64,000 nucleotides of DNA from an uncultured Candidatus Berkelbacteria bacterium (GTDB lineage Bacteria > Patescibacteriota > UBA1384 > UBA12157 > JAENIV01). The stretch is taken from contig OY969116.1 of NCBI GenBank assembly GCA_963698075.1, positions 542,131-606,130 of the forward strand, written 5' to 3'. Positions within the stretch are counted from its first letter, which is position 1, and every line of letters begins with the position of its first letter. The notes under the pieces are model-generated. The model was not told the DNA's origin, did not search any database, and saw nothing but the letters and a program-made list of their open reading frames with translations. This document shows positions 7,389 to 61,750 of this stretch, piece after piece. Made by a program: the position numbers and the translations under genes.

Positions 7389-7832
7389 TCATTCGATCAT
7401 TCCTTGAGCATTAATGGTCAATTCTTGCGTTTTGGCGGCAGTGCCAGAGAGTGTTATCATCCCCGGATTAATCGGCTTGCCCGACCTTATCGAGAATTCA
7501 AGACTATCGCCGCCGTCTGTTAGATTCCAGCTTAAATTAGTTTTATTGGGTAAGACTCTGACTGAATTTTCTTTCGCATTAGCCGCATATCCTGAGCCAC
7601 TATCGGCGAAAATAACCACTCGGCCGGTCTCCAAGTGGACTCCCCAAAGTTTATCGTCAATTTGAGCCTCTGAATTGGCTTGAGCCTCTTTCAAAGCACC
7701 GAGAACCATTGTCTGAGCCGTCTCAATATCACCGGCCTGTCCGAAGGAAACCAGACTCAAAGAAGCCAATCCGGTCATGATGGCTAAAACCCCAACGACA
7801 ATAATAACTTCGATTAAAGTATATCCCTTCAT
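7389..7832 (-). CDS. Type IV pseudopilin (GspH/FimT-like)
   Basis: MKGYTLIEVIIVVGVLAIM is a prepilin leader with a conserved Glu. Confidence 0.7.
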   Translation of the reverse strand: MKGYTLIEVIIVVGVLAIMTGLASLSLVSFGQAGDIETAQTMVLGALKEAQANSEAQIDDKLWGVHLETGRVVIFADSGSGYAANAKENSVRVLPNKTNLSWNLTDGGDSLEFSIRSGKPINPGMITLSGTAAKTQELTINAQGMIE

Positions 7833-9037
7833 TAAATTGTTCCGATTAATTGATATATCGGCACCACAATCGAAATCGCCATTCCCCCAATAAGCAAACC
7901 AACAATGACCAGTAAAACCGGTTCGATCAAACTGGTTAAGGTTTTTAAACTATTATCGGCCTGCTCCTCATAAAAATCGGCTAATTCAAGCAAAATCTTA
8001 TCGAGCTGGCCAGTTTTTTCACCGACACTGATCACCGAAATTAATAATCCCGGAAAATATTTTTCATCGCCCCGAAAAGCATTGGCCAAAGAAACACCTT
8101 TAATAATCTTCTCTTTGGCTTCACGAACTATTTTTTTATAAATCGCCAAACCCATCCCCTCGCTGGTAATTTCTAAAGCTTCACCGATGGGAATCCCACT
8201 GGCCAAGAGCCCACCCAGTACTCGAGCAAACCTCACCAGCTCCATTTGTCTTAAAAGATTTTTGGAAATGGGTATCCGATATAGGAGACGATTAAAAAAA
8301 GCTTTGACTTTATCCAATCTTAATAAATATATTCCCAAGGATACCAAGATCACCAAAATGGCGATCGTTAAGGCCGGTTTGTATGAGGCCGCTTTGGCTA
8401 AGAAAAAAAGCACCCGGGTGGTCACCGGAATTTTTAGACTCGACCCTTCAAAAACCGTGGCCAGCCGAGGAATGACAAAGGTAATAATCAAAACTAAAAC
8501 ACCCAAAACGCCGGCTATTAAAACGACCGGGTAAATCAAGGCATTTTTGACCTTGGAAACAAGGGCGTATTCTTTTTTAAGTTGAAGATTTAAACGCCTC
8601 AGGGATTCATCCAATTTGCCTGAGGCCTCGCCTGCCTTGATCATATTGATAAAAACAGGACTAAAATCTTTGGGATAATGGCTTAATCCTTCCGACAAGG
8701 GTTTGCCATTTTCAATTGAGAATTTAAGATCACCTAAAATTAATCTAAAATAAGAATTACGAGTATCGGCGGCTAAAACATCTAAGGCCGGCGGCAGATT
8801 TACGCCGGCTTTAATCATCGTGGCCAGATTTCCGGTCAAACTGATCTTTTCAAGATAAGAAATTTTCTTCGAAAAAAGGGCGATATTTCTCAAATTTTTT
8901 TGTTTTTGAGCAACTTTGACGACTAATAAGTTTTCTGATCGCAAAAAATCAATGACCGTTTGGCGATCAACCGCCTCCATTTCCCCCTTTTTTAAATTAC
9001 TAGCCTCATCAACCGCCAAATATTCAAAAAAAGGCAT
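7832..9037 (-). CDS. pilC: Type IV pilus platform protein PilC (GspF family)
   Basis: It has two GspF repeats and three TM segments, a typical length of 401 aa, and sits immediately downstream of pilB. Confidence 0.85.
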   Translation of the reverse strand: MPFFEYLAVDEASNLKKGEMEAVDRQTVIDFLRSENLLVVKVAQKQKNLRNIALFSKKISYLEKISLTGNLATMIKAGVNLPPALDVLAADTRNSYFRLILGDLKFSIENGKPLSEGLSHYPKDFSPVFINMIKAGEASGKLDESLRRLNLQLKKEYALVSKVKNALIYPVVLIAGVLGVLVLIITFVIPRLATVFEGSSLKIPVTTRVLFFLAKAASYKPALTIAILVILVSLGIYLLRLDKVKAFFNRLLYRIPISKNLLRQMELVRFARVLGGLLASGIPIGEALEITSEGMGLAIYKKIVREAKEKIIKGVSLANAFRGDEKYFPGLLISVISVGEKTGQLDKILLELADFYEEQADNSLKTLTSLIEPVLLVIVGLLIGGMAISIVVPIYQLIGTI

Positions 9038-9048
9038 CCTTATTTCCC

Positions 9049-10770
9049 CTATTCTCTCGTTACTCTCAACACTTCATCTAACGTTGTCATGCCCGCTTCG
9101 ACTTTCCTAAAACCATCCTCAAGCATCGTCTTCATTCCTTCCTTAAGAGCTTGGGTTTTAATTTTTTCCGCCGGTGAATGGGCAACGGTTAAATTTTGGA
9201 TTGTTGTTGAAGTGGACAAAACTTCAAAAATGCCAATTCTACCGCGGAATCCCGAACCGCCACACTGCTCGCAACCTTTGCCTTTATAGATTTTAGTCGG
9301 CATTTTGATTCCATTTTCTCCACCAGAAAGCCCCGTAATTTGTTTTTTTAAATTTTCAATGTCTTTTTCGGAAACTTTGATCGACGTCACACAATTTTTA
9401 CAAATTTTTCTCACCAATCTTTGGGCAATCACTAAATTCAAAGTTGAGGCTAAAAGAAATGGTTCGACGCCAATGTCCAAGAGTCTCGGGATGGCGCCGG
9501 CGGCATCATTGGTGTGCAAGCTCGAAAGCAATAAATGACCAGTCAGGGCCGAATGAATAGCCATTTCAGCAGTTTCTTTGTCACGGATTTCGCCCACCAT
9601 CAAAATATCTGGGTCTTGGCGTAAGAGACTTCTCAAACCATCAGCAAAGTTGAGTCCAATTTTAGGATTAACCTGAATCTGATTAATTCTTTTAATGTCG
9701 TATTCGATTGGGTCCTCAATGGTGGAAATATTGACTTCCGGCCGGTTTAAGAGATGTAAAATCGTATACAAAGTCGTCGTTTTCCCCGAACCCGTCGGAC
9801 CGGTGGCCAGAATCATTCCATGCGGCCGCTCGATTGCTTCTTTGATAATTTTGAGATCTCTGGGAGACAAACCTAGTTCTTCTAAAGTCAAAAACCTTTC
9901 TGACTCCTCAAGCAAACGCATCACCACCTTTTCTCCATAAAAAGCGGGAATAATTGAGACACGAATCGCGGTACTATGATGTTCGCTTTCATAGCGAAAA
10001 CGGCCGTCTTGGGGAATCCGATGCTCATCAATTTTGAGGTCAGCCAGGATCTTCACTCTCGCCACTAAAGCCGGATGAATGGCAATTGGCAAATTAATAA
10101 TATCTCGAAGCAAGCCATCAACTCGAAAACGAATGATAAATTCTTTGGGGAGGCGTTCCATATGAATATCTGAGGCCCGTTGGGCAATTGCATATTCGAT
10201 GACCGTATCTAAAATATTGATCACCGGTAAATCTTTGGCGAGTTCGGCAATATTGCCTTGAGCCTTAGATTTCGCCACATTTTGCTCGATTATTTTGGTA
10301 AAATCCGAGGCAATCGATTTTTTATAAACTCCGAGGGCTTCGCGGAGATCGGTCTCCGTAGCAATAAAGGGAATTACTTTGAGGCCGGTATGTTTTTGGG
10401 CAAAATCAAGAGCATTGATGTCGCCTGGATCCGCCATGCCAAGCTTAAGGGCCTCCTGGCCATTTTGCTTTTCGCGGCCAAAAACAATCATTTTTCGAGC
10501 TTTGGCCATCTGTTCGGGAATTAGCTTGACGTCATCTTCAGAAATTTTGATTTTCCCCAAAGAGACAAATTGAACCCCAAAATAATCAGCTAAAATTTCC
10601 GCGAGATATTCTTCGGAAATATCGCCGTGTTCAACTAAAACATGACTGATATCACGATCAGTTTTTTGCGCCTCAGCTTCCGCCGAACTAAATTGCTTTT
10701 CATCGATAAAACCCGAGGCGAGCAAGGTTTTTTTTAATTCATCAGGGGTGATATGTAACATCTCATTCAA
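9049..10770 (-). CDS. pilB: Type IV pilus assembly ATPase PilB (GspE family)
   Basis: It has the Walker A GPTGSGKTTTLY, Asp/His boxes and a CxxC...CxxC tetracysteine motif (CKNC...CEQC), plus an N-terminal GspII domain. Confidence 0.9.
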   Translation of the reverse strand: MNEMLHITPDELKKTLLASGFIDEKQFSSAEAEAQKTDRDISHVLVEHGDISEEYLAEILADYFGVQFVSLGKIKISEDDVKLIPEQMAKARKMIVFGREKQNGQEALKLGMADPGDINALDFAQKHTGLKVIPFIATETDLREALGVYKKSIASDFTKIIEQNVAKSKAQGNIAELAKDLPVINILDTVIEYAIAQRASDIHMERLPKEFIIRFRVDGLLRDIINLPIAIHPALVARVKILADLKIDEHRIPQDGRFRYESEHHSTAIRVSIIPAFYGEKVVMRLLEESERFLTLEELGLSPRDLKIIKEAIERPHGMILATGPTGSGKTTTLYTILHLLNRPEVNISTIEDPIEYDIKRINQIQVNPKIGLNFADGLRSLLRQDPDILMVGEIRDKETAEMAIHSALTGHLLLSSLHTNDAAGAIPRLLDIGVEPFLLASTLNLVIAQRLVRKICKNCVTSIKVSEKDIENLKKQITGLSGGENGIKMPTKIYKGKGCEQCGGSGFRGRIGIFEVLSTSTTIQNLTVAHSPAEKIKTQALKEGMKTMLEDGFRKVEAGMTTLDEVLRVTRE

Positions 10771-11387
10771 ATTAATTTTGTCAAGCCGATTAAACTCAGA
10801 AAATTAATGTAAAAAGAAAAGTTACCAAGAACCAAAATAGCGAGACTTGTAAAGATTAAAAAAGGAGCGATTTTTAGACGCTCGTTCAAAAGATGCTTAC
10901 CAAAGACTAAACTTTGAAAGATTTGAAAAATTATCATTAAAATCAACGCCGCCACAATCAAAACAATAAGATTGGGAAAACCGACAATGAATACGGTTAA
11001 TAAAATCACCAACCAATCAGCTTCTTCAAAAAATGGACGCTTGACGAGGTGAGCAACAAGAAGAACAACGGCGACAAGAACAAAATCAATTGCGATCGTC
11101 ACCACCAAAGGCAAGAGATAATTGGCCCAAACATTATCGACAAAAAAAGAAGTCCCTTTACCAGGCAACAAATAAATTCCCAGGGTACTTTTTTTAAGCT
11201 GCCAATAAAAGATAAAGACGCGAGCTAAAAGTTGAAGGATGTAGGCGGCAACAATTACGATTGTCCATTTTTTCAAGAATTTAACCTGAATTTCGCCAGC
11301 AAGGATAATCTGACGAAACAAAATTATCAATAAAATCACCGCTAGTATTTGCGGAATCCAAAAAACTATCTGGTCAATCCAGATCAT
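10767..11387 (-). CDS. pilD: Prepilin peptidase PilD-like (A24 family) polytopic membrane protein
   Basis: A 206-aa protein with about six TM helices, sitting between pilA and pilB. Its start overlaps the pilB stop. Confidence 0.55.
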   Translation of the reverse strand: MIWIDQIVFWIPQILAVILLIILFRQIILAGEIQVKFLKKWTIVIVAAYILQLLARVFIFYWQLKKSTLGIYLLPGKGTSFFVDNVWANYLLPLVVTIAIDFVLVAVVLLVAHLVKRPFFEEADWLVILLTVFIVGFPNLIVLIVAALILMIIFQIFQSLVFGKHLLNERLKIAPFLIFTSLAILVLGNFSFYINFLSLIGLTKLI

Positions 11388-11391
11388 CTCT

Positions 11392-11470
11392 GCCCCTCCG
11401 CTCCTGAGTCCCGCCTCCGGCGGGAGCTCAGGAAGCCCCGCTAATGACGCTCCTGTGTGATTGAATGTAA
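11392..11470. repeat. Hairpin-containing repeat, copy 1 (between pilA stop and pilD start)
   Basis: gctcctgagtcccgcctccggcgggagctcaggaagccccgc is homologous to 12058-12110 and also includes a ccccgc...gcgggg long-range stem. Confidence 0.6.
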
Positions 11471-11523
11471 TTCAATAAACAGGAAGGAATTTTGCGGGGC
11501 ACGTGAATCTCAACTTATTTTAT

Positions 11524-12051
11524 TTACGGCAGTATCGTTAAATCCGTGCCCACTTCATAGCGAGCATTGTTATTACCACCATCAGCTGACTCTTTGGGAG
11601 TGTTATCAGTACTTTCAAAAACGCAGTCAATTTCGTAAGTTTTGTTGGCCACGGAAACGCCAAAACGATAATTGTGGTTCGCATCATTGGTCGGATCGAG
11701 CGGCAAAGCAGCAATTGGCGCTCCCGAAGAGACCGCGGTAAAGTCAAGTCCGGTAATCCAGCCTGTGCCGTCGTTCTTCTTCATGGCATTGGCCGAACCA
11801 ACAATCGGGAAGGTGCTGTAGGGTCCTGCCATTCCGGCAAAGTCATGGCTATCCGCCAAATAAAGATTGACCGACGTCGCCAGCGACGTCATATCAGAAA
11901 ATCGCTGCGAATCGCGGGATTTTTCCAAAATCCTTGCCGGGTTGATGGCAATGACAATAATAATTGCCAAAATCGCAATAATGGCAATGACAATTAAGAG
12001 CTCGATGAGGGTAAAACCTCTCCCATTAGATCTTTCTTGTACCAAATCCAC
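11524..12051 (-). CDS. pilA: Major type IV pilin (PilA-like)
   Basis: RGFTLIELLIVIAIIAILAIIIV is a canonical class III signal. The gene has a strong RBS (aggagg) and is a stand-alone highly expressed-type gene. Confidence 0.8.
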   Translation of the reverse strand: MDLVQERSNGRGFTLIELLIVIAIIAILAIIIVIAINPARILEKSRDSQRFSDMTSLATSVNLYLADSHDFAGMAGPYSTFPIVGSANAMKKNDGTGWITGLDFTAVSSGAPIAALPLDPTNDANHNYRFGVSVANKTYEIDCVFESTDNTPKESADGGNNNARYEVGTDLTILP

Positions 12052-12130
12052 CTCCTTCGCTCCTGAATTTCGCTTCTGCGATAGCAGAAAGAAAGTTCAG
12101 GAAGCCCCGCACCTGGCGCTTCTGCAATAA
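12052..12130. repeat. Hairpin-containing repeat, copy 2 (5' leader of pilA)
   Basis: gctcctgaatttcgcttctgcgatagcagaaagaaagttcaggaagccccgc has the same ctga-hairpin-tcaggaagccccgc architecture as 11392-11470. Confidence 0.6.
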
Positions 12131-12195
12131 CAGGACGTAGTCCGTTTTGCAGAAAGGAATGGTGCTGGGGTAATTATTTTTACTTGTAAATTTTA

Positions 12196-12591
12196 CTACT
12201 TTTTCTGTTCCGCTAAAAATGTCTCGACTTTTTTCACCACTTGTTGTGGGGTAACGTCGGTTTTAACCAGATAATCAACCGCGCCAAGTTTGAAACACTC
12301 AAAGACCGCGTCTTCTTGACCAAAATTGGTCAATAAGATCACCGGCGTGGTAAAAGTCGCTGGTTGGCTGCGAAGTTTCTTAAATAAAGCCAGGCCATCG
12401 AGTTTGGGCAGCATAATGTCAAGCAAAATCAAGTCAGCTTTTTCTTTGGTCGCCTTTTCCATGCCTTCGAGACCATCGTAGGCAACTATCACATCATAAC
12501 CATCAGAGACGAATTTACGCTCATACATTTTTACCAGCGTGACATCATCTTCAATGAAAAGAATCTTGGCTTTAGCCATTTTGTTCCTCAA
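12196..12591 (-). CDS. Stand-alone response-regulator receiver domain (CheY-like)
   Basis: ILFIEDD...LILLDIMLPKLDG...K. The Asp pocket and phospho-acceptor Asp are conserved, and there is no output domain. Confidence 0.8.
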   Translation of the reverse strand: MRNKMAKAKILFIEDDVTLVKMYERKFVSDGYDVIVAYDGLEGMEKATKEKADLILLDIMLPKLDGLALFKKLRSQPATFTTPVILLTNFGQEDAVFECFKLGAVDYLVKTDVTPQQVVKKVETFLAEQKK

Positions 12592-12710
12592 ACTAATTGT
12601 ACGATAAATAATCCAAAATGCAAAGTTGATTAGCGCTTTTACGGCACTGTAATACTCACCTGGCTGGCGTTCGAATAATCACCCGCGCGATATTTTATGA
12701 TGCTTCAACT

Positions 12711-60499: not shown

Positions 60500-61750
60500 A
60501 TGAAAATATTAGCGATCGAAACATCTTGTGATGAAACAGCTGCATCTGTTATTGAAAAAACGCCATCGGGCGTTAAAATTTTGAGTAATATTGTTGCTTC
60601 GCAAATTGAGATTCATCAAAAATATGGCGGGGTTTTCCCCGAGCATGCCTCCCGGGCGCATGTCGAAAAAATAATTCCAGTAGTTGAACAGGCATTAATC
60701 CAGGCCGAAGGGATATCCCTGAGCGAGCGGCGGTCTCGACTGCGCTCCGTTTTTGGCGAGTCACGCATGAGCCAAAACGGAAGCAGGCGAGTAGGTCGGT
60801 TAGGGAGCCCAAATGCGAACGGGGTATCCCGAGGCCAAAATGATATTGATATTATCGCGGTAACGACAGGTCCAGGGCTGATCGGTTCTCTTCTAGTTGG
60901 GGTTAATTTTGCCAAAACTCTTTCATACGCGAAGAATTTACCCATAATTGGCATTAATCATTGGCTCGGGCATATTTACTCCAACTGGGCCGAAAAACCA
61001 TTTCCGCAGTTTCCTGCTTTGATATTGATCGCGAGTGGCGGACATACAGGTCTAGTTTTAATGAAATCGCACAAAAAAATAATTCCACTCGGCGAAACTT
61101 TAGACGATGCCGCCGGCGAGGCGTTCGACAAAGTGGCGAAATTATTAGATCTCGGATACCCCGGCGGGCCGGCGATAGCCGCTGCTGCCGCAGCTAAATT
61201 CAAAAATCAAAATGCAAAAAACAAAAAAACTGCAATTCAAAAATTAAAAATAGAATTTCCGAGAAGCATGTTGGACAGCGGAGATTTTAATTTTAGTTTT
61301 TCGGGCTTAAAAACGGCTGTATTATATAAATACAAAGAAGTGATTAGTCGTGATTCAGGAGTGATTAATAGTGATTTGTCGTCTGACAATCAATCACCTA
61401 ATCACAATAAATCACACGGCAAAGCCGCAAATCACTTAACTGCCGCTATCGCGGCCGAATTCCAACAAGCCGTCATTGATATTTTAATCGGCAAAACCAT
61501 CCAAGCCGCCTATGAATATCAGCCAAAATCCATCTGTCTCTGCGGCGGAGTGAGCGCGAATAAAGAACTTAGAGAACAAATGAAAAAGGCCGTTTCCGGC
61601 CTCCCCAGCCATCCATCCTTCCATGTTCCAGCCATCCACCTTTCAACAGATAACGCCGCCATGATCGGCATTGCCGCCGCTTATCACCTAAATGAAGCGA
61701 CCACATGGAAACGAGTGCATGCTAACGCTAATTTAAAACTCTACAACTGA
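60500..61750 (+). CDS. tsaD: tRNA N6-adenosine threonylcarbamoyltransferase TsaD (Kae1/Gcp), expanded by an in-frame repeat insertion plus low-complexity inserts
   Basis: Its MKILAIETSCDETAAS, HxxGH and GGVSAN motifs are canonical. The roughly 39-aa segment ERRSRLRSVFGESRMSQNGSRRVGRLGSPNANGVSRGQN has no counterpart in canonical TsaD and is encoded by repeat 60717-60836. Confidence 0.85.
   Translation: MKILAIETSCDETAASVIEKTPSGVKILSNIVASQIEIHQKYGGVFPEHASRAHVEKIIPVVEQALIQAEGISLSERRSRLRSVFGESRMSQNGSRRVGRLGSPNANGVSRGQNDIDIIAVTTGPGLIGSLLVGVNFAKTLSYAKNLPIIGINHWLGHIYSNWAEKPFPQFPALILIASGGHTGLVLMKSHKKIIPLGETLDDAAGEAFDKVAKLLDLGYPGGPAIAAAAAAKFKNQNAKNKKTAIQKLKIEFPRSMLDSGDFNFSFSGLKTAVLYKYKEVISRDSGVINSDLSSDNQSPNHNKSHGKAANHLTAAIAAEFQQAVIDILIGKTIQAAYEYQPKSICLCGGVSANKELREQMKKAVSGLPSHPSFHVPAIHLSTDNAAMIGIAAAYHLNEATTWKRVHANANLKLYN
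60717..60836 (+). repeat. GC-rich MITE-like dispersed element, copy 4 (in frame inside tsaD)
   Basis: ggcggtctcgactgcgctc...aaacggaagcaggcgagtaggtcggttagggagcc...gaacggggtatcccgaggcc is homologous to 7229-7382. Confidence 0.8.

Follow-up and report, generated by a model that had tools for sequence, protein, structure and literature searches.

The 64,000-nucleotide (nt) stretch of contig OY969116.1 analyzed here (the window), from an uncultured Candidatus Berkelbacteria bacterium, carries a type IV pilus locus in which the major pilin gene, pilA, is bracketed by two structured repeats, elements A and B. The two repeats belong to a family of structured elements, about 107 to 136 nt long and carried on the mRNA strand, that is dispersed within a single lineage of ultra-small, Berkelbacteria-like bacteria. 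The genes and elements of the locus given here are on the minus strand. pilA (11524..12045; Pfam N_methyl and NCBIfam pilin models) encodes a major type IV pilin of 173 amino acids (aa) from a TTG start codon, with orthologues in relatives that are 71 to 92% identical. Its upstream cistron is a stand-alone response-regulator receiver gene (12196..12582; Pfam Response_reg, E = 1.8e-23), and the cistron behind element B encodes a 206-aa polytopic membrane protein (10767..11387, ATG at 11387). Genes for PilB (9049-10770) and PilC (7832-9037) lie 3' of the membrane protein gene, with minor pilins next.

The sole promoter-like site upstream of the two elements is a sigma-70-like candidate before the response-regulator gene (TTTGCA-17-TACAAT, 12596..12624), a consensus match only, and a promoter and terminator scan detected neither kind of site at element A or element B. 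Because the only promoter-like site precedes the response-regulator gene and no terminator-like site occurs at either element, both are probably intercistronic parts of one transcript, and the genes for the response regulator, pilin, membrane protein, PilB, and PilC appear to form a single transcription unit. Gene order at the response-regulator cistron is kept in five relatives (L115, L117, L003, L002, and L114; L-numbers, from L001 to L134, denote loci or contigs fetched for comparison). The ATG start codon assigned to the pilin in an earlier note on this sequence gave way to the TTG at 12045, which is conserved in L115, L114, L129, L003, and L002; the gene in L001 was also called at 173 aa. 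The mechanically called open reading frame (ORF) start, GTG at 12051, falls within the Shine-Dalgarno (SD) sequence, and translation from the TTG places the leader MVQERSNGRG ahead of FTLIELL.

Extent and structure of the two elements

Element A, a full copy of 118 nt between the response-regulator gene and pilA (12053..12170), scored 132.9 bits against covariance model R1, which was built from 12 copies. Its two hairpins, H1 (12105-12170) and H2 (12058-12104), are preceded by a 25-nt A-rich single-stranded tract between the response-regulator stop codon and the element (12171..12195), and the element stops 0 to 1 nt ahead of the SD sequence AAGGAGGTG (12049-12057). Element B, a full copy of 107 nt between the pilA stop codon and the 206-aa gene (11394..11500; 101.5 bits with R1), is built the same way, with an A-rich spacer of 23 nt upstream (11501-11523), H1 at 11436-11500, H2 at 11399-11435, and, directly behind the element, an SD of GAGGGG (11392-11398) and the ATG at 11387. 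The earlier note had recognized two homologous repeats bracketing pilA that end just before the ribosome-binding site, and both points were borne out. Its repeats of about 80 bp at 12052-12130 and 11392-11470 proved too short, and the ccccgc...gcgggg stem that it described is real and closes the whole of H1, with a 5' partner that lies beyond those limits, at 12167-12170 and 11494-11499.

The kinship of the two elements was recovered in several ways. A composite pattern, CTTCCTGA-N8-38-TCAGGAGCG, matched the 64 kb twice, at 11399-11435 and 12058-12104 (both minus), with 0 matches expected from 100 shuffles. A repeat search linked the two regions by three collinear direct-repeat blocks of 78 to 81% identity and recovered the hairpin arms as well, and mean column identity over the full A/B alignment was 76%. 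Folding on the mRNA strand was far more stable for the two copies than for their shuffles (z = -4.9 and -4.5). No copies beyond A and B were returned when the window was scanned with the covariance model and its filters disabled. A custom scan for box-like hairpins gave one further clean match, GCTTCCGTTTTGGC...GCCAAAAACGGAGCG at 60744-60783 (minus), antisense within a 416-aa ORF (60500-61750), plus weak short-stem matches; all of these lie within ORFs and are probably noise, as about 2 are expected by chance.

From 5' to 3', the element consists of an A-rich unpaired tract of about 20 nt, H1, H2, and then the SD and start codon of the gene itself. H1, which is long and irregular, is closed by GCCCC/GGGGC; it contains an inner box helix, CUUYCUG/CAGRAGCG, and its apex, A-Y-U-N-C-R-U, is kept in 17 of 19 copies. 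H2 opens with the same box helix (GCUUCCUGA/UCAGGAGC) and continues into a variable, covarying distal stem. Box helices of the general form 5' CUUYCNG / CNGRAGCG 3' occur two or three times per element. In 16 copies, the 22 nt upstream were 56% A, 28% T, and 4% C, compared to 27% A in the window overall.

Covariation was assessed on two alignments. RNAalifold, applied to a MAFFT alignment, predicted 34 pairs, 17 of them with compensatory changes. In a 19-sequence model alignment, 95.9% of cells were paired, versus 76% in shuffles and at most 50% with slid partners, double changes were present in 26 of 34 pairs, and none of 500 shuffles matched any observed measure. The 19-sequence alignment is model-fitted and so biased toward structure, and the independent MAFFT/RNAalifold result agrees with it. 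The folded strand is the mRNA sense strand, because G.U pairs outnumber A.C pairs 20 to 3 on it; these include a conserved U.G in the H1 box helix (13 of 19). Ensemble folding predicted a mean probability of being unpaired of about 0.57 for the SD, versus about 0.1 for the H2 arm. Copies found by the model alone kept the H2 box with compensatory inner changes, as in L105 (CUUCCCGU/ACGGGAGCG) and L131 (CUUCCUGUU/AACAGGAGCG). The CUGA/GAAA strings in H2 of element A, which resemble parts of a hammerhead, were not kept in other copies.

Members of the family and the genes behind them

Scanning metagenome contigs with the exact pattern GGGGCTTCCTGA-N8-38-TCAGGAGCG returned 33 loci, 13 of which held a complete two-hairpin element; the remainder were GC-rich chance matches. 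The covariance models added copies in the same contigs, including four in 14 kb of L105 and three in 14 kb of L083, with H1-only forms among them, and a divergent full copy at the orthologous site between the pilin and membrane protein genes of L131. Together, the scan and the models yielded 17 full copies and 3 H1-only copies. The earlier note had proposed a search for further copies, especially near silent pilins. Further copies exist in metagenome contigs and precede unrelated genes; the window holds no silent pilin and no third copy.

Genes behind full copies encode pilin (window and L114) and the 206-aa membrane protein (window and L131), and also a GAF-PAS histidine kinase of the pilus region (L105), a PilB-like ATPase (L085), FtsA (L113), ribosomal protein L7/L12 (L084), glyceraldehyde-3-phosphate dehydrogenase (GAPDH; L089), a Gfo/Idh/MocA oxidoreductase (L087), a secreted Cys-rich protein and a small membrane protein (both L083), a DUF5652 protein (L099), a Zn-ribbon peptide (L098), and a conserved peptide of 44 to 47 aa (L082 and L105). 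Several of these, namely pilin, L7/L12, GAPDH, and FtsA, are typically abundant proteins. Downstream of the histidine kinase gene, L105 (positions 1-940) has no ORF longer than 84 aa and no Rfam match, and the syntenic loci L119 and L117 encode a 23S_rRNA_IVP protein and a protein of 159 to 189 aa there.

Placement relative to these genes was strict. All 17 full copies were co-directional with the downstream gene, and in 16 of them (all except L104) the start codon followed 7 to 12 nt past the terminal ...GAGCG. Eight copies began 3 to 26 nt past the stop codon of a co-directional gene: two each between response regulator and pilin and between pilin and membrane protein, and one each between response regulator and histidine kinase, rplJ and rplL, recX and the secreted protein gene, and recR and a small protein gene. 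Other copies lay 23 to 52 nt downstream of canonical sigma-70-like promoters (TTGACA-N17-TATAAT-like). The distance of these promoters from the copies that they precede varies, and intercistronic copies have none, which rules out a promoter borne by the element.

The element is modular, with H1-only and mini-H2 forms and with H1 and H2 types shuffled among copies. Two H1-only copies, L105 7846-7934 (minus) and L083 13230-13342 (plus), are followed by GGGGTCTGCGC, a CCCCGTTAGAT...ATCTAACGGGG hairpin, and a promoter, TTGAC(A/T)-N17-TA(T/C)AAT. Because these copies precede canonical promoters, H1 can stand as a separate module upstream of a promoter. No matches to the element were found in viral contigs, phage records, or plasmid records, and a phage or plasmid origin was rejected.

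Searches against described RNA families were also negative. Rfam 15 gave no match in the 64-kb window at the gathering score, and at a permissive E value the region 11300-12300 returned only noise, at 16 bits versus gathering scores of 38 to 70 and on the opposite strand. Twelve element-bearing loci matched only tRNAs in Rfam, and no description of the element was found in the literature on intergenic repeats or RNA motifs of Berkelbacteria and the wider candidate phyla radiation (CPR).

Module exchange and the pilus locus in relatives

Despite their shared architecture, A and B are each other's poorest match, with 62% identity in H1 and 58% in H2, and their longest exact common run is 14 nt. 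Closer relatives of each were found in other genomes. H1 of element B is 94% identical to the copy before the PilB-like gene of L085, H2 of element A shares 96% identity with the copy ahead of rplL in L084, and the single copy in L114 resembles both H1 of element A (82%) and H2 of element B (89%). A local tandem duplication of one copy is ruled out by these nearest relatives. Judged from these sequence relationships, A and B are mosaic members of a module-exchanging family and do not mark the ends of a cassette that was inserted or duplicated.

To compare orthologous sites, 80 loci (712 kb) were collected via PilB from GTDB species representatives covering diverse CPR, and 20 more (L115 to L134) via homologues of the pilin or the membrane protein. 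Neither nhmmer nor the covariance models detected the element in the 80 PilB loci, and among the other 20 pilus loci, nhmmer and models R1 and R2 detected it in L131 only. The closest PilB loci, L003 (77% PilB identity) and Berkelbacteria GW2011_GWE1_39_12 (L002, 70%), keep the order histidine kinase, response regulator, pilin, membrane protein, PilB, with 114 and 27 nt of unrelated sequence, respectively, between response regulator and pilin and gaps of 28 and 17 nt between pilin and membrane protein.

The site before pilA (site A) was empty in every orthologous locus compared except L114, whose pilin is 71% identical and which retains element A between response regulator and pilin with compensatory changes. 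The site after pilA (site B) was more varied. It was empty in L129 (87% pilin identity) and in L122, L123, L003, and L002 (73 to 80%), and lay beyond the contig end in L128 (92%). It held a stub, GCCCCGCAAATTTCAGCTGCGGGT, followed by the same SD in L115 (90%), an unrelated AT-rich palindrome in L119 and L117 (86%), the divergent full copy in L131 (85%), a mini box hairpin in L134 (80%), a plain GC hairpin in L125 (72%), and a small hairpin in L114, whose contig stops before the next gene. Because L125, L119/L117, L134, L115, and L114 lack element B and carry another hairpin at its site, the sequences suggest recurrent selection for some structure downstream of the pilin.

Several other features of these gaps were recorded. 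Relatives without element A carry two to four direct copies of ATTAG(T/C)G(G/A) just upstream of the pilin SD (L003 3780-3825, L122 3725-3750, L128 405-430, L131 1-50, and L134 240-250); they may be a different pilA regulatory motif. A second, unrelated family of AT-rich palindromic repeats (aaattccaaat... units) occupies several pilus-operon gaps of Berkelbacteria-like genomes, including the site between pilin and membrane protein (L117 9172-9318 and 11656-11900; L119 10519-10665; L122 4936-5056, 6780-6921, and 8129-8232). Logan contig L001, from the same genome as the window, begins inside element A at model position 20, and many orthologous pilin contigs are just 0.7 to 2 kb long, which is consistent with assembly breaks at repeats or with strain variation around pilA.

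The relatives bear directly on the earlier note's idea that the repeats serve as recombination substrates on either side of a pilin cassette that is swapped for antigenic variation, and on its extension to excision and phase variation. It is true that the two elements, in direct orientation, enclose a single gene, that of the major pilin, that the 64 kb holds no other copies, and that many public pilin-bearing contigs are short. However, pilin identity follows that of the flanking genes whether or not relatives carry elements. Identities to L115 were 95% for the response regulator, 90% for pilin, 82% for the membrane protein, 90% for PilB, and 94% for PilC, and those to L117 were 87, 86, 71, 88, and 88%, respectively, so the pilin allele replacement that the earlier note suggested looking for was not seen. 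Searches with the pilin (tblastn and blastn) found no silent or partial copies in the window, A and B are far less alike than the modules that they share with other genomes (89 to 96%), the element also stands before core genes whose synteny is conserved, such as rplJ-rplL, and no recombinase gene lies at the locus. The cassette explanation is thereby largely refuted, and we regard it as very improbable. The locus resembles Neisseria pilE/pilS in having a major pilin gene with conserved repeats nearby, but that system needs silent pilS copies, the Sma/Cla repeat, a G-quadruplex (G4)-forming sequence, and pilin replacement, and the window has neither silent copies nor replacement.

A second possible explanation is that the family is a largely selfish or neutral mosaic repeat (REP/BIME-, BOX-, or MITE-like) of little or no benefit to host genes, tolerated only directly upstream of an SD in one orientation and spread at the DNA level via a transposase, single-strand hairpin recognition, or gene conversion. 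Filled, empty, and stub sites are scattered among relatives with 71 to 92% pilin identity, the same subtypes precede unrelated genes in different genomes, H1 and H2 behave as separable modules, copy density differs strongly between genomes, and contigs break in or beside copies. Against this stand the single orientation of 17 of 17 copies and the fixed start-codon distance of 16, the conservation of loop and box nucleotides besides the covarying stems, and the retention of element A in L114 with compensatory changes. In addition, terminal inverted repeats are lacking, no target-site duplication marks filled versus empty sites, and no transposase or RAYT-like gene was seen in the contigs examined. 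A mainly selfish element seems unlikely, though it deserves more weight than the cassette.

The membrane protein encoded between the pilin and PilB was named pilD in the earlier note, a name that the sequence does not support: the 206-aa product had no Pfam, NCBIfam, or PDB match (PDB by profile search) and no Peptidase_A24 domain match, and no invariant Asp was found among eight orthologues. A prepilin peptidase is marked by Peptidase_A24 and a pair of catalytic Asp residues. A membrane protein of 200 to 206 aa always occupies this place in the lineage (L115 3827-4444, L117 9318-9938, L003 4393-5001, and L002 4380-4976), and only 6 homologues of the window protein (10767-11387) were found among 5.8 billion proteins. 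It may be an uncharacterized pilus component.

Known systems and the possible role of the element

The earlier note had offered a cis-acting leader or a processing or stability hairpin that sets the ratio of pilA to its downstream gene. In its general form this idea fits, because a conserved, covarying mRNA-strand structure adjoins the SD, half of the copies are intercistronic, and no U-tract terminator is present. A conserved leader specific to pilus genes does not fit, because 80 CPR pilus loci and the pilA loci of most close relatives lack the element, which is present before rplL, gap, ftsA, a histidine kinase gene, and small genes. The element is thus a general mRNA leader or spacer module and not a pilus-specific switch or a pilin-swapping cassette. 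A post-pilA attenuator, also suggested earlier, is excluded along with intrinsic terminators in general, as H2 is followed by GAGG or AAGGAGG with no U-run and the terminator scan was negative at both elements. A riboswitch or other ligand-controlled leader was rejected because the downstream genes are functionally incoherent, no U-tract follows H2, and the SD is mostly unpaired. An integron attC cassette was rejected because gene order is identical in relatives with and without elements and no integrase was found among the scanned locus genes.

Among repeat families, the REP/BIME and REPIN sequences of proteobacteria, such as the intercistronic REPs of malE-malF and hisJ-hisQ, share with the element that they are dispersed extragenic hairpins, often intercistronic, co-transcribed, mosaic, modular, and variable in copy number between strains. 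REP/BIME sequences stabilize upstream mRNA segments and give differential expression within operons, REP/BIME and ERIC repeats both affect mRNA stability in operons, and some repeats in the group of ERIC, Correia, and RUP miniature inverted-repeat transposable elements (MITEs) and mycobacterial interspersed repetitive units (MIRUs) modulate mRNA processing (PMC3184786). However, REPs are 20 to 40 nt long, carry a GTAG head, form inverted pairs, are found mainly 3' of genes, where their position relative to the following SD varies, and are associated with RAYT transposases. The element is about 115 nt, with two hairpins in direct order, is locked in orientation, and ends on the SD; it was rejected as a REP, BIME, or REPIN because of its length of 107 to 136 nt, this hairpin order, its GCCCC start, and the lack of a GTAG head. 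In the material covered, which comprised 64 kb of the 929-kb genome and scattered contigs, no RAYT (Y1 transposase) gene was found near the four L105 copies.

ERIC, Correia, and RUP MITEs and the MIRUs are, like the element, about 100 to 150 bp, intergenic, and co-transcribed, with filled and empty sites between relatives, and MIRUs also sit between operon genes. MITEs differ in having terminal inverted repeats, target-site duplications, and either orientation. The element was rejected as a MITE since its ends, GCCCCRGC... and ...TCAGGAGCG, are not reverse complements and comparison of the filled window sites with empty sites in L115 and L003 revealed no target-site duplication. MIRUs differ in their tandem copies and in small ORFs that overlap neighboring genes, whereas no ORF runs through the element, which begins 24 to 26 nt past the upstream stop codon and is single.

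Closer parallels are found among mRNA leaders. Hairpins at the 5' end beside a strong SD guard mRNA against 5'-dependent decay, and the aprE leader, the SP82 and ermC stabilizers, and the cry3A STAB-SD are 5' mRNA stabilizers or processed leaders of this kind in Firmicutes. Like them, the element places a stable hairpin beside a strong SD, and cutting in the Firmicutes leaders occurs in a single-stranded stretch upstream of the hairpin; unlike the element, they are single-locus leaders and not a dispersed repeat family with a common sequence. The related intercistronic hairpins that serve as RNase III sites in phage T7 (R0.3, R1.1, and others) make stable translatable units from polycistronic RNA. 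The plastid intercistronic expression element is likewise reported to be a hairpin between cistrons that yields stable translatable units (PMC2230500). Both resemble the element as hairpins with internal loops between cistrons just upstream of ribosome-binding sites, and both differ in being confined to one phage genome or plastid operon and in acting by RNase III cleavage or binding of a pentatricopeptide repeat (PPR) protein. RNase Y cleavage needs secondary structure a few nt downstream of the cut, and in cggR-gapA of Bacillus subtilis, the upstream product, which carries the regulator, is rapidly degraded after the cut and the downstream one is stable (PMC11321564). This arrangement recalls the present family, in which one copy precedes gap and another precedes a pilin gene behind a regulator gene.

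Taken together, the element lacks the features that define REP/BIME, MITEs, MIRUs, terminators, riboswitches, and pilE/pilS, and it behaves like intergenic structured repeats and mRNA stabilizers. The class of RNase III or RNase Y processing sites and 5' stabilizers fits on anatomy alone (the A-rich tract, hairpins of about 20 bp or more, and the free SD). What sets the element apart is that it strictly keeps one orientation and adjoins the SD directly, and that its box helices resemble SD and anti-SD sequences.

On this basis we tentatively favor, as plausible though short of probable, a co-transcribed module for mRNA processing or stability and SD presentation, a mechanism drawn wholly from matching anatomy to known systems. 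The element would be co-transcribed inside operons or in 5' untranslated regions and then cleaved, either in the A-rich tract immediately 5' of the hairpins, by an RNase Y/E-type endonuclease, or inside the hairpins, by RNase III. This would leave the downstream cistron starting with two stable hairpins beside a strong, unpaired SD, acting as a 5' stabilizer against 5'-dependent decay; RNase J is encoded in genomes of the lineage. The upstream cistron would end in, or just ahead of, a 3' structure. Elements A and B could in this way delimit the pilA segment, with a protected 5' end and a structured 3' end, so that the major pilin mRNA would outlast and out-express its operon neighbors. Such bracketing is in keeping with the large excess in which major pilin is needed relative to regulator and assembly proteins, and the other hairpins at site B in relatives without element B point toward the same stability reading. 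Copies may spread and vanish by a DNA-level process, with H1 and H2 modules swapped between them.

Several observations weigh against a processing and stability module. The element is dispensable at orthologous sites, being absent before pilA in L128 (92%), L115 (90%), L129, L119, L122, L123, L003, and L002, and therefore its function would be modulatory, or copies would be partly selfish. The 64-kb window holds only two copies, against three to four in 14 kb of L083 and L105. The search pattern itself accounts for part of the conservation seen in the H2 boxes. Finally, the conserved boxes and H1 apex are superfluous for a simple exonuclease barrier and hint at a specific trans-acting partner.

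This last point leads to the possibility that the element is a cis-regulatory leader read by a specific trans-acting factor (an RNA-binding protein, a small RNA, or the 30S subunit) via the box helices and H1 apex, placing unrelated genes under one translational or stability regulon, possibly via a switch between SD-free and SD-sequestered folds. Sequence as well as pairing is kept in the two to three box helices, along with the conserved U.G, a bulge, and the apex, the boxes persist in copies found by the model in L105 and L131, and the element directly adjoins the SD. As read from the sequence, the anti-SD-like CUUCC could pair with the genuine GGAGG as well as with the SD-like GGAG of the box. 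However, the downstream genes lack functional coherence, minimum-free-energy and ensemble folds leave the SD mostly free with no competing fold conserved, no binding-protein candidate is associated with the element, the orthologous genes of close relatives do without it, and no Rfam riboswitch or leader family matches it. We consider such a regulon rather improbable. A related and similarly doubtful proposal is that the family is a novel class of structured RNA modules in CPR, portable, fixed in orientation, and docking on the SD, which insert themselves precisely 5' of ribosome-binding sites and are read by a dedicated trans-acting factor, either a protein or the ribosome, via the boxes and H1 apex.

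Members of the CPR (Patescibacteria) have tiny genomes and few known regulators, and post-transcriptional control in them is almost undescribed. What is new here is a covariation-supported RNA structure family, absent from Rfam, that lies in one orientation on the ribosome-binding sites of pilin, L7/L12, GAPDH, and FtsA genes. If mainly selfish, it would be the first described REP/BOX-like mosaic repeat of the lineage; in practice it would cause assemblies to break around pilin genes, and it would serve as a strain-typing marker. If the element governs the stability or translation of mRNA, it would account for how a major pilin gene embedded in an operon behind a regulator gene can be over-expressed relative to its neighbors, and it would provide a portable expression element from an uncultivated lineage. 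If the SD-docking class with its trans-acting factor is real, it would amount to a genome-wide layer of post-transcriptional control for streamlined genomes with few transcription factors.

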